This document shows positions 3,034 to 27,173 of a stretch of 43,231 nucleotides of DNA, one piece after another. The notes beneath the pieces are model-generated. The model worked only from the letters and a program-made list of their open reading frames with translations, was not told where the DNA came from and did no database searches. Numbering within the stretch: the first letter of the stretch is position 1; every line of letters begins with the position of its first letter. The position numbers were made by a program, and so were the translations under genes. The DNA is taken from the sequence record DRR723986_3159, one strand, 5' to 3'.

Positions 3034-4419
3034 CTAGACCCTGCGCCAGGTCGAACCGCCCGCCCCGTCCATGATCTCGATGCCTTCGGCCTCTAGCTCA
3101 TTGCGGATACGGTCAGCCTCGGCCCAGTCCTTGTTGGCGCGGGCATCGACCCGGGCCTGAACGAGGGCATCGATCCGGGCATTTTCGTCATTGTCCCCGC
3201 CCTGTTCCCAGTCTTTCGGGGTCAGCGTCAGCAGGCCAAGCAGCTTGCCGGCCGCCAGAAGATTCGCTTTCGCATTCGCCATCGCCGCTTCGTCTTTCTG
3301 GTCGGCAGCTGTGTTGGCTTCACCGGCCAGACGGGAAAGCTCGGCGAGCGCTTCCGGCGTGTTGAGGTCGTCCTTCAGCGCGCGCAGCACGCCGGTGTCG
3401 CGGGCCTCACCGCTGTCGGCGTCCCACACCCGGCGCAGGGCGCCATAGATACGGTCCAGCGTGGCCTTCGCTTGCTTCAGCAGGTCTTCCGTCCAGTCCA
3501 GCGGGGCGCGGTAATGCCCGCTAAGCATGGCAAAGCGCAGCACTTCACCCGGCCATTGCTTCAGCAGGTCATGCATAAGCACGACATTGCCGAGGGATTT
3601 CGACATCTTCTCCCCGCCCATGTCGAGGAAACCATTGTGCAGCCAGTAATTGGCCATCACCTCGCCGTGGGCGCACTCCGACTGGGCGATTTCATTCTCG
3701 TGATGCGGGAATTGCAGGTCGATCCCGCCGCCATGAATGTCGATCGTCTTGCCGAGATGCTTGGCCGCCATGGCGGAGCATTCGATGTGCCAGCCGGGAC
3801 GGCCCCTGCCCCATGGGCTGTCCCAGATCGCGTCTTCCGGCTCGCCGGGCTTGGCGAATTTCCAGAGCGCGAAATCGGCCGGGTCGCGCTTGTCGGCATC
3901 GACTTCGACGCGGGCGCCGGCCTCATTATCCTCCAGCCTGCGGCCGGACAGCTTGCCATAGTCCGGCATCTGCTTGACGGCGAACCAGACGCCCTCCTTG
4001 CCAACATAGGCATAGCCGCGGCGGACCAGTTTTTCGATCATGTCGATCATCTCGGCCACATGGTCCGTCGCCCAGGGCTCGATGCTCGGCGGCAGCACGT
4101 TCAGCGCGGCCGTGTCGGCATTGTAGATGCCGGCATATTTCTTCGTGATTTCCGCAATCGGCTCGCCGGTCTCCAGCGACGCCTTGATGATCTTGTCCTC
4201 AATATCCGTGATGTTGCGGGCATACACGACCGCGTCCGCGCCATAGGTGCGGATCAAGAGACGCCGCAGGACGTCGAACACGATGGGCGGCCGGGCATTG
4301 CCGATATGGGCGTAATTATAGACCGTGGGGCCGCAGACATACATCGTCACGCGTTTGGGGTCCTGCGGCTCGAAAACGCGTTTTTCACGCGCAGCGGTGT
4401 CGTAAAGGCGGATGGTCAT
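3034..4419 (-). CDS. cysS: Cysteinyl-tRNA synthetase
   Basis: YVCGPTVY, HIGN, GRPGWHIECSAM, HGGGIDLQFPHHENE and KMSKS motifs. Confidence 0.98.
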   Translation of the reverse strand: MTIRLYDTAAREKRVFEPQDPKRVTMYVCGPTVYNYAHIGNARPPIVFDVLRRLLIRTYGADAVVYARNITDIEDKIIKASLETGEPIAEITKKYAGIYNADTAALNVLPPSIEPWATDHVAEMIDMIEKLVRRGYAYVGKEGVWFAVKQMPDYGKLSGRRLEDNEAGARVEVDADKRDPADFALWKFAKPGEPEDAIWDSPWGRGRPGWHIECSAMAAKHLGKTIDIHGGGIDLQFPHHENEIAQSECAHGEVMANYWLHNGFLDMGGEKMSKSLGNVVLMHDLLKQWPGEVLRFAMLSGHYRAPLDWTEDLLKQAKATLDRIYGALRRVWDADSGEARDTGVLRALKDDLNTPEALAELSRLAGEANTAADQKDEAAMANAKANLLAAGKLLGLLTLTPKDWEQGGDNDENARIDALVQARVDARANKDWAEADRIRNELEAEGIEIMDGAGGSTWRRV

Positions 4420-4496
4420 TTGTGTCTCTGGATCGGGTTTGTTCGGGAAATGCCGGCAGGGTCAGCTTTTGACAGCCCTATTGGCGCGTTGTGGCC

Positions 4497-4547
4497 TCAG
4501 CGGCAACAACAACAGCGGCGACAGAAGGGAAAAGCGGGCGCGAACAT
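4497..4547 (-). CDS. Candidate cysteine-rich leader peptide MFAPAFPFCRRCCCCR upstream of cysS
   Basis: ATG TTC GCG CCC GCT TTT CCC TTC TGT CGC CGC TGT TGT TGT TGC CGC TGA; 5 of 16 codons are Cys, 4 consecutive; the stop lies 77 nt before the cysS ATG. Confidence 0.8.
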   Translation of the reverse strand: MFAPAFPFCRRCCCCR

Positions 4548-4554
4548 GGGCCGG

Positions 4555-4583
4555 GCGGTACCAGTTAACCCAGCGAAAAGCAA
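4555..4583 (-). promoter_or_regulatory. Putative sigma70-type promoter for the leader peptide/cysS transcript
   Basis: TTGCTT-17 nt-TACCGC followed by 7 nt and then the leader ATG. Confidence 0.55.
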
Positions 4584-4663
4584 CTGAAGGCTGATCCAGT
4601 GACGCGTCGTCACCGTAGAATCTGCTGGAAACCGGGGCTCTGGCCCCTTATGTTCCTCATTAT

Positions 4664-4766
4664 CGCCCTGAGGGTATCAACTCCGGGCGGGCGTTAAGTC
4701 CGGGCAGGAGGCAAGAAAGACCTCCAAGGGACGCCCCGGCTCGACCCCCGTCCCTCAGTCGAAGGA
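4664..4766 (+). promoter_or_regulatory. Structured 5' leader of folE (candidate cis-regulatory RNA)
   Basis: Hairpins CGCCCTGAG/CTCCGGGCG, GGAGG/CCTCC and AGGGACG/CGTCCCT; loop TCGAC is complementary to GTCGA next to the SD AAGGA. Confidence 0.45.
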
Positions 4767-4774
4767 CTCCACAC

Positions 4775-5398
4775 ATGGCAATGGACGCCATCACACCAAA
4801 GAATGAAATTGCGCGCGCGAAACCCGTGAAACGCCCATCCCAGGAAGAAGCTGAAGAAGCGGTTCGCACGCTGATCGCGTGGGCTGGCGACGACCCGGCC
4901 CGTGAAGGCCTGATCGATACGCCGAAGCGCGTCGTCAACGCCTACAAGGAATGGTTCTCCGGCTATACCGAAGACCCGGTGAAATACCTCTCCCGTACCT
5001 TCGAGGATGTGCAGGGCTATGACGACATCGTCATGCTGCGCGACATCGACGTGGAAAGCCATTGCGAGCACCACATGGCCCCCTTCCTCGGCAAGGCCTA
5101 TGTCGCCTACATGCCAACCGAAGCGGTGGTGGGCATCTCGAAACTGGCCCGCGTGGTGGAAATCTTCTCCAAGCGCCTGCAGACGCAGGAAACCATGACG
5201 TCCCAGATCTGCGACGCGATCACGGAAAGCCTCGCCCCCATGGGGACCGCCGTCCTGATCGACGCTGTGCATGAGTGCATGTCGACCCGCGGCGTGCACC
5301 ATAAGGACGTGTCCACGATCACGACGCAGTTTACCGGCGTCTTCAAATCGGACGCAGACCTGCGCAACCGCTTCCTGCGGATGACCGGCCGCGGCTGA
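4775..5398 (+). CDS. folE: GTP cyclohydrolase I
   Basis: REGLIDTPKRV, SHCEHHMAPF, GISKLAR, RLQTQE, HECMSTRGV. Confidence 0.97.
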   Translation: MAMDAITPKNEIARAKPVKRPSQEEAEEAVRTLIAWAGDDPAREGLIDTPKRVVNAYKEWFSGYTEDPVKYLSRTFEDVQGYDDIVMLRDIDVESHCEHHMAPFLGKAYVAYMPTEAVVGISKLARVVEIFSKRLQTQETMTSQICDAITESLAPMGTAVLIDAVHECMSTRGVHHKDVSTITTQFTGVFKSDADLRNRFLRMTGRG

Positions 5399-27097: not shown

Positions 27098-27173
27098 TGG
27101 TGCCGCTAAGGTGACTTGAACACCTGACCCCCGCATTACGAATGCGATGCTCTACCAGCTGAGCTATAGCGGC
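27098..27173 (-). tRNA. tRNA-Thr (anticodon CGT)
   Basis: GCCGCTATAGCTCAGCTGGTAGAGCATCGCATTCGTAATGCGGGGGTCAGGTGTTCAAGTCACCTTAGCGGCACCA; 76-nt cloverleaf with encoded CCA. Confidence 0.97.

Follow-up and report, generated by a model that had tools for sequence, protein, structure and literature searches.

In the trpL and pheST leaders of E. coli, cognate codons in a short upstream open reading frame (ORF) control the downstream gene, and in E. coli tnaC and Salmonella mgtL factor-dependent termination in a C-rich untranslated leader without an intrinsic terminator hinges on a ribosome held where a short ORF ends. The cysS gene, which encodes cysteinyl-tRNA synthetase, is usually controlled by a T-box riboswitch in Firmicutes.

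For the uORFC-8-2 motif, Brewer et al. (RNA Biol 2021, PMC8632094) give 145 examples, all of them from Rhodobacterales and all preceding cysS. These leaders have a conserved AUG, a pair of tandem Cys codons, "usually at positions 14 and 15", with UGC dominant, a first stem that holds the Cys codons and a U run in all cases, and they are read there as ribosome-mediated attenuators (PMC8632094). In mycobacteria, mutation showed that polycysteine leaderless ORFs lift a duplex by which the Shine-Dalgarno (SD) sequence of the next gene is covered (Canestrari et al., bioRxiv 10.1101/834739). In Deinococcus deserti, the cysS mRNA starts at the AUG of a 10-residue leader with two Cys, for which attenuation was proposed (de Groot et al. 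2014, PMC4007540).

The window analysed here is a single stretch of DNA of 43,231 nucleotides (record DRR723986_3159). Its initial annotation, made from the sequence alone, had proposed that a polycysteine ORF directly upstream of cysS acts as a cysteine-sensing attenuator that feeds back on cysS, and had known of no description for an alphaproteobacterial cysS. Such a description exists, namely uORFC-8-2 in Rhodobacterales (PMC8632094); for the cysS leaders of Hyphomonas or Caulobacter, no description of the present element was found in the literature searched.

The leader ORF upstream of cysS and its conservation

The cysS gene occupies positions 3034..4419 on the minus strand and encodes a protein of 461 aa with the Pfam domains tRNA-synt_1e (E 1.8e-124), DALR_2 and CysS_C. 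The encoded CysS was 96% identical to that of the nearest genome compared, and Hyphomonas beringensis is among the loci of that genus (its contig range is identical to that of L004), so that, as judged by protein similarity, the host genus is Hyphomonas (Hyphomonadaceae; order Hyphomonadales in the current NCBI taxonomy).

The leader ORF lies upstream of cysS on the same strand (4497..4547, minus) and encodes MFAPAFPFCRRCCCCR in 16 codons, followed by a TGA stop. Its codons read ATG TTC GCG CCC GCT TTT CCC TTC TGT CGC CGC TGT TGT TGT TGC CGC TGA. Four consecutive Cys codons at codons 12-15 (TGT TGT TGT TGC; 4503..4514, minus) and a further one at codon 9 (TGT; 4521..4523, minus) give a total of five, four TGT and one TGC; the tandem run is followed by CGC and the stop codon, which is separated from the cysS ATG by a gap of 77 nt. 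In the window's long frames with high GC3, Cys is encoded less often by TGT than by TGC (43 vs 145). A run of at least four Cys occurs only once in the six frames of the 43-kb window, in the leader ORF. In first-order Markov simulations such runs averaged 0.06, and 6% of the 200 simulations contained one or more; by itself, the rarity of the run is only suggestive against chance. The decisive evidence is conservation at the orthologous place, because of which the ORF can be taken as not due to chance.

This conservation can be read directly from the upstream regions of cysS, which were examined in 45 Hyphomonas genomes (25 and 20 further ones); one is cut inside cysS, leaving 44 usable. An ATG ORF of exactly 16 codons was found at the same place in 36 of the 44 (19/24 and 17/20, respectively), ending 71-86 nt before the cysS ATG. 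One genome (G159, locus L130) has the same 16-codon frame intact with ACG replacing ATG, and its downstream motif reads CCAUCAGGGC; it may be a decaying copy or use a non-canonical start, and may serve as a natural control. The ORF is absent from the remaining seven genomes (L017, L019, L021, L023, L024, L124 and L125). The entire leader differs in these seven, so promoter, ORF and downstream motifs are gained or lost as one unit.

Codon statistics were compiled from 37 leaders, i.e. 36 from Hyphomonas (window included) and one from genus g23. Codon 14 is TGT in 37/37 leaders and codon 15 is Cys in 37/37 (9 TGT, 28 TGC); codon 16 is Cys in 24/37 (11 TGT, 13 TGC) and Arg otherwise, and extra Cys codons are found at varying positions within codons 7-13. 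The leader peptides are nearly wholly different between lineages at constant length, e.g. MFAPAFPF.., MKLFRTLLALPKG.. and MDMNRRACRLPKG..; by lineage, the peptides include MFAPAFPFCRRCCCCR, MFTGTFTISCCCCCCR, MKTTRFPCPSACRCCC, MKLFRTLLALPKGCCC, MDMNRRACRLPKGCCC, MSMIAINASGCCPCCC and others. As read from these alignments, the pattern is one of selection on cognate codons, frame and length only, with an N-terminal part that varies freely.

The polycysteine ORF had been described correctly in the initial annotation in all its details (length, number, tandem order and codon choice of the Cys codons, and distance to cysS), and its view of TGT as a disfavoured codon agrees with the counts given above. 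It had also suggested looking in relatives for Cys-run short ORFs upstream of cysS with TGT/TGC variation: the ORF is indeed present in 36/44 usable Hyphomonas genomes, and synonymous changes are seen at codons 15 (9/28) and 16 (11/13).

A model of the Hyphomonas leader matched strongly (65.8-110.6 bits) at a single place per genome, next to cysS in every case, in 26/28 Hyphomonas genomes, many of the scanned genomes having been members of the training set. For this reason the informative result is the absence of second copies: none was found above 24 bits elsewhere in 151 family genomes. When a wider set of Cys-run leaders was sought in three complete relatives, CCC-stop and CCC-codon-stop patterns were no commoner than the reversed-pattern control. 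The 16 CCC candidates of the nearest genome were inspected and set aside, as they lie mostly inside longer open frames (e.g. a coding region in another frame); one candidate of this genome, MLKCCC (6 codons), is clearly intergenic and precedes a small ORF, and looks incidental.

For the relatives outside Hyphomonas, 151 genomes were included in a family search, and CysS was found at E up to 1e-100 in 142. From 114 genomes, 58 main-copy upstream regions of other genera were chosen (12 or fewer per genus), together with two second copies, and a Cys-rich ORF was called when an ATG start was combined with at least two Cys in the last eight codons. Such an ORF is present in genera g23 (1/1 locus; 15 codons, CCCCC end), g14 (8/12 loci, one more being doubtful) and g13 (1/5 loci), in 0/40 loci of the 14 genera other than g1, g13, g14 and g23, and in none of five loci from other families of the order. 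The leader ORF is dispensable, since it is missing in 7/44 Hyphomonas genomes and in all 40 loci of these 14 genera. Two copies each of cysS are carried by Paracoccus homiensis (G185) and by two family genomes (G078 and G175); the second copies of the latter two (L186 and L187) are without a Cys leader ORF.

The common form in g14 (L133, L135, L136, L137 and L188) is a 13-codon M..ICCVCICG ORF preceded by GGAG, and is therefore SD-led rather than leaderless; a 9-bp hairpin spans the last codon and the stop codon. In Rhodobacterales, 16/29 cysS loci have an ORF of 13-14 codons whose core, I-C-C-I-I, lies at codons 8-11 and uses mostly TGC. The promoter of these 16 leaders ends about 7 nt before the ATG, a stem spans the stop codon, and there is a U-rich run. 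A covariance model (R1) was built from the 16 leaders: it finds 18/29 Rhodobacterales loci and one more weakly, and gave no match at E up to 10 in 36 Hyphomonadaceae/Caulobacterales sources, window included.

Promoter geometry and RNA elements of the leader

The geometry of the leader promoter is directly apparent. A -35 element TTGCTT (4578..4583, minus) and an extended -10 element TGgTACCGC (4555..4563, minus) precede the ORF, and the -10 element ends 7 nt upstream of the ATG. In alignment A4 (34 leaders), the TTG, the TG and TA of the extended -10 (TGnTA) and the ATG are all invariant. The arrangement of TTGnnn, a 17-nt spacer and TAnnnn before the ATG is found in 36/36 Hyphomonas leaders, with a gap from the -10 hexamer to the ATG of 7 nt in 28/36 and 6 nt in 8/36; an SD-like tetramer before the ATG is seen in only 6/37 leaders. 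Given how far downstream of a -10 element transcription usually begins, initiation should fall at, or next to, the A of such an ATG. With a TTG-17 nt-TGnTA promoter ending 6-7 nt upstream of the ATG, transcription therefore probably starts at or adjoining this A, and we infer a leaderless mRNA. Leaderless translation is established in a relative, Caulobacter crescentus (bioRxiv 10.1101/2020.05.06.081141).

Contigs of four metatranscriptome runs were compared with the region, and contigs of relatives cross the leader in two of the runs (4208-4658 and 4216-4762); contigs show no start, end or strand. A second promoter, with TGTTGC as -35 and the CCATTAGGGC motif as -10, was considered and dropped, its spacing of 19-20 nt being wrong. 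Inspection by eye of the 16 Rhodobacterales leader ORFs (within L195-L219) found TTGAC-like and GCTA-like elements, the latter ending about 7 nt before the ATG, and no SD in many of them. These Rhodobacterales leaders also look leaderless, a point absent from the available text of PMC8632094.

The last Cys codons of the leader ORF are predicted to take part in a hairpin, H1 (4488..4510, minus), in which GUUGU and GCC pair with GGC and ACAAC just 3' of the stop codon. The stop codon sits in the loop, and UGUUGY pairs with (R)CAAC(R) 5-12 nt past the stop. This pairing potential is a direct property of the leaders: an H1-type hairpin is found in nearly all of them by per-sequence folds, which were used because the variable hairpin is misaligned in the full 37-leader alignment A1, for which RNAalifold returned no consensus structure. 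The native H1 was stabler than versions in which its 3' arm had been shuffled (mean z -1.6; z<0 in 35/37 leaders). In the H1 register of A4, 85% of cells pair, compared with 31-32% when the arms are slid by 1-2 columns; slides of three columns still give 58-73% pairing because the Cys codons repeat. Among 28 distinct sequences, the third base of codon 15 pairs in H1 as C:G in 16, U:A in 5 and U:G in 2. Covariation in H1 is weak, as most of its positions are invariant (both sides vary in 2/7 pairs, and values as high as those observed arise in 38-66 of 500 shuffles). The fold of the whole 201-nt region was no stabler than that of shuffled sequences (z +0.56).

The nearly invariant CCAUUAGGGCUG comes next after H1 in A4. 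The conserved motif CCAATAGGGCTG (CCATTAGGGCTG in most relatives) lies at 4473..4484 (minus), with C, A, T, A, G, G and C (nearly) invariant in A4. Constrained folds predict a second hairpin, H2 (GCC..AGGG..GUCA/UGAC..CCCU..GGC; 4452..4485, minus), with no U tract after it; the conserved motif forms its 5' side, and is retained even where the H2 partner differs between lineages. The spacer from there to the cysS start (4420..4451, minus) is C-rich, G-poor and mostly unpaired (unpaired probability 0.84 at the start region). The last 45 nt before cysS contain 17 C and 8 G in the window, and over the 37 leaders 35% C and 21% G, compared with 30% and 33% in the cysS coding region.

Two further readings of this part of the leader were discarded: an RNA polymerase pause consensus after the stop fits the window only and not its relatives, and a T-box-like or tRNA-mimic interpretation of the motif fails on the lack of a conserved UGG. 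The Rfam scan of the whole window gave no match at gathering score to the leader and no T-box; at E up to 10, positions 4300..4900 gave no known family and four chance-level matches, none of them a T-box. The Rhodobacterales cysS leaders have no Rfam match either (the uORFC-8-2 motif is not in Rfam 15), and the silence of Rfam is therefore uninformative on membership. The sole Rfam match at gathering score in the whole window is a tRNA gene at 27101-27173 (minus strand).

The gene folE (GTP cyclohydrolase I, Pfam E 9.3e-71) is divergent from cysS, with its ATG at 4775 (+). The region upstream of it (4667-4760, +) holds a 5' leader that is conserved, structured and laid out like a riboswitch of the THF-II type (folE motif). 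CUGAGGG/CCCUCAG form its P1, and the joining segment UCAACUC is identical to the Rfam THF-II consensus; a long P2 (GGGCGGGCGUUAAGUCCGG ... CCGGCUCGACCCCCG) with a variable apex is followed by a single U, the 3' strand of P1 and an AAGGA ribosome-binding site. Across 16 Hyphomonadaceae loci this core does not vary, and that of P2 is unchanged in 3 loci of other families as well. Rfam RF02977 matches an Aminobacter folE leader (60.2 bits) and not the window. Reports of THF-II are so far confined to Rhizobiales or metagenomes (PMC6800512); the folE leader of the window is probably an extended-P2 variant of THF-II outside Rhizobiales. In two runs, RNA-library contigs of high depth begin at 4673 and 4679, a weak hint for this leader. 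As a point for annotation, the 355-nt spacer between cysS and folE would be filled entirely by two divergent regulatory leaders.

Candidate read-outs of the leader

The reading that accounts best for these observations, and that we regard as probable, is a leader peptide that senses Cys-tRNA and controls cysS, with factor-dependent (Rho-like) termination as the favoured read-out in the window. As placed by its promoter, the cysS mRNA would begin at the AUG of the 16-codon leader ORF, and ribosomes loading on the leaderless 5' end would have to read Cys codons 12-15 (of which 14 and 15 encode Cys in every relative). Under a shortage of Cys-tRNA(Cys), these ribosomes would stall on the 5' arm of H1, adjoining the stop codon, and the stall would alter the fate of the downstream leader, resulting in more cysS mRNA that is full-length and translated. 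With ample Cys-tRNA(Cys), the ORF would be completed quickly, H1 and H2 would fold and less cysS would be made. Translation of the ORF, stalling of the ribosome and the direction of the regulation are what we infer from this layout; the invariant ATG at the predicted 5' end and the fixed frame speak indirectly for translation. Sensor feedback on cysS, as put forward in the initial annotation, is strongly backed by the comparison (ORF in 36/44 genomes, Cys fixed at codons 14-15), and the analogues found before cysS in Rhodobacterales (16/29 loci) and in genus g14 (8/12 loci), like those described in PMC8632094 and PMC4007540, support it.

The attenuator of the same proposal is not visible in the window, whose leader has neither a terminator-like site nor a predicted masking of the cysS start, and the read-out is the weakest step of the mechanism. 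Terminator-like sites are absent from the leader of the window and from 28 others (29/37). A strict terminator-like site was found in 6/37 leaders, all within one eight-leader sublineage (sublineage B: L009-L012, L014, L015, L116 and L123), in which GUGCCC/GGGCAU, AGGGC/GCCCU and GCCCUG/CAGGGC, together with a U-rich tract, are predicted to form the competing hairpins 1:2, 2:3 and 3:4; by these folds, one Hyphomonas sublineage has gained a classical intrinsic terminator with competing hairpins. When a ribosome footprint was masked at codon 14 or at the stop in constrained folds of the window, H2 persisted. No structural switch is predicted, since footprint masking alters neither H2 nor the accessibility of the cysS start (values given below); with no terminator site and with accessibility unchanged by masking, a terminator switch and a mycobacterial-type mask are both unsupported for the window. 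Because a terminator is lacking, the spacer is C-rich and the Cys codons adjoin the stop, the read-out favoured for the window is one in which a factor such as Rho would terminate transcription early on the leader. Such Rho-like premature termination on a C-rich, G-poor leader appears the likeliest of the read-outs, at a chance that we place below even.

A wider version of the sensor would dispense with both an intrinsic terminator and start masking. The ribosome on the last codons of the leaderless ORF would govern a step that depends on a factor (e.g. Rho loading, pausing or endonuclease entry) at the invariant CCAUUAGGGCUG, and one family would have at least three read-outs, i.e. that of the window, the terminator of sublineage B and the start pairing of g14. 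We put this forward tentatively and consider it rather doubtful; if true, the family would be a natural series for the evolution of attenuator read-outs.

Translational attenuation of the mycobacterial type, in which the leader without a stalled ribosome masks the ribosome-binding region of cysS and a stalled ribosome frees this region, is unlikely in the window. Masking of this kind was demonstrated by mutation for the polycysteine leaderless ORF Ms5788A (bioRxiv 10.1101/834739). Within g14, 3 of the 5 leaders of 13 codons (L133, L135 and L136) are predicted to pair their Ile-Cys codons with ACAGAUGA immediately upstream of the cysS AUG, an arrangement that resembles the mycobacterial read-out. 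In the window, however, the cysS start is mostly unpaired without a ribosome (unpaired probability 0.84) and becomes no freer when a footprint is masked (0.75 and 0.71), the means over 26 leaders being 0.58 free and 0.61 and 0.63 masked; moreover, the Cys codons pair directly after the stop (H1), 60 nt from the cysS start.

Control of mRNA stability is very unlikely. Here the single-stranded AUUA between H1 and H2 would be an entry site for an endonuclease (e.g. RNase E), shielded by a ribosome at codons 14-16 or at the stop. It would explain why CCAUUAGGGC is the best-conserved non-coding stretch and the only A/U-rich spot of a GC-rich leader, located between two hairpins and 13-18 nt past the stop, and why it is kept beyond the needs of H2 pairing, as the H2 partner varies by lineage. 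The nuclease site is purely putative, however, and a ribosome footprint that begins at codon 14 would stop about 10 nt short of the motif.

The least likely explanation is that an RNA hairpin, a promoter-proximal element or a Cys-rich peptide with a function of its own is conserved, the Cys codons being a by-product: the invariant TGTTG and its partner CAAC could persist for pairing alone, and codon 14 is always TGT, beyond the needs of amino-acid coding, but pairing explains neither the invariant ATG at the predicted transcript start, nor the fixed 16-codon frame through near-total sequence turnover, nor the additional Cys codons that lie outside H1, variably placed within positions 7-13, while four separate designs (Hyphomonas, g14, Rhodobacterales and Deinococcus) all share the specific link to cysS, and a functional peptide is disfavoured because the N-terminal residues are not conserved.

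Comparison with known systems

The favoured reading, a Cys-tRNA sensor with a Rho-like read-out, was compared with the described leaders. As in leader-peptide attenuators of the trpL and pheST type, a short ORF with cognate codons lies on the same strand upstream of the gene that it would regulate, and the ORF and its cognate codons are conserved among relatives (36/44). Sublineage B has the full set of hairpins 1:2, 2:3 and 3:4 with a U-rich tract. By contrast, the window and 28 other leaders are without a terminator hairpin and U tract, the window has no mutually exclusive terminator and antiterminator, and these leaders appear leaderless rather than SD-led. The likeness to tnaC and mgtL lies in a ribosome that would be held at the end of the ORF and in a C-rich leader without an intrinsic terminator, a comparison based on composition and on the Cys codons beside the stop.

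Older NCBI taxonomy placed the Hyphomonas family in Rhodobacterales, and if it was used, a few Hyphomonadaceae sequences may be among the 145 examples of uORFC-8-2. As that motif is described, the two leaders have in common the cysS gene, the Alphaproteobacteria, a conserved AUG of the upstream ORF, tandem Cys codons and the location of the Cys codons in the first stem. The stated positions of the Cys codons, 14 and 15, fit Hyphomonas exactly, whereas the 16 Rhodobacterales leaders extracted here have them at 8-11. The Hyphomonas leader differs in its 16 codons, C-terminal Cys run, codon 14 that is always TGT, CCAUUAGGGC motif and lack of a U run; the U run or intrinsic terminator given for all cases of uORFC-8-2 is thus missing from the leader of the window. 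Compared by our own model R1, rather than by the published alignment, the Hyphomonas leader has no sequence or structure match to the Rhodobacterales representatives.

With the mycobacterial ORFs, the Hyphomonas leader shares a short ORF with a Cys run (leaderless in mycobacteria, and probably so here to judge by promoter placement), a putative role as sensor of charged tRNA-Cys and Cys codons located in a duplex. The mycobacterial targets are cysteine-metabolism operons at several loci, whereas the Hyphomonas element is found at cysS only. The mycobacterial duplex covers the SD sequence of the next gene; in Hyphomonas the duplex partner lies directly after the stop and no masking is predicted, and in the window the Cys tract does not pair with the downstream ribosome-binding region. 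The Deinococcus deserti leader belongs to another phylum and its transcription start was mapped by RNA-seq (PMC4007540), whereas the Hyphomonas start is deduced from the promoter.

The principle and the gene are already known, also within Alphaproteobacteria, and the Hyphomonas design is distinct from that of Rhodobacterales. It enlarges the growing collection of Cys-codon leader ORFs that would control cysS by an example that is well conserved and specific to one lineage, and would mean that the sensing of amino acids through stalled ribosomes reaches a further aminoacyl-tRNA synthetase gene family, in marine Alphaproteobacteria. The Hyphomonas leader is a useful test case beside the systems described so far, because its ORF is apparently leaderless and strictly fixed in length and most versions have no terminator or start-site mask that can be recognised.
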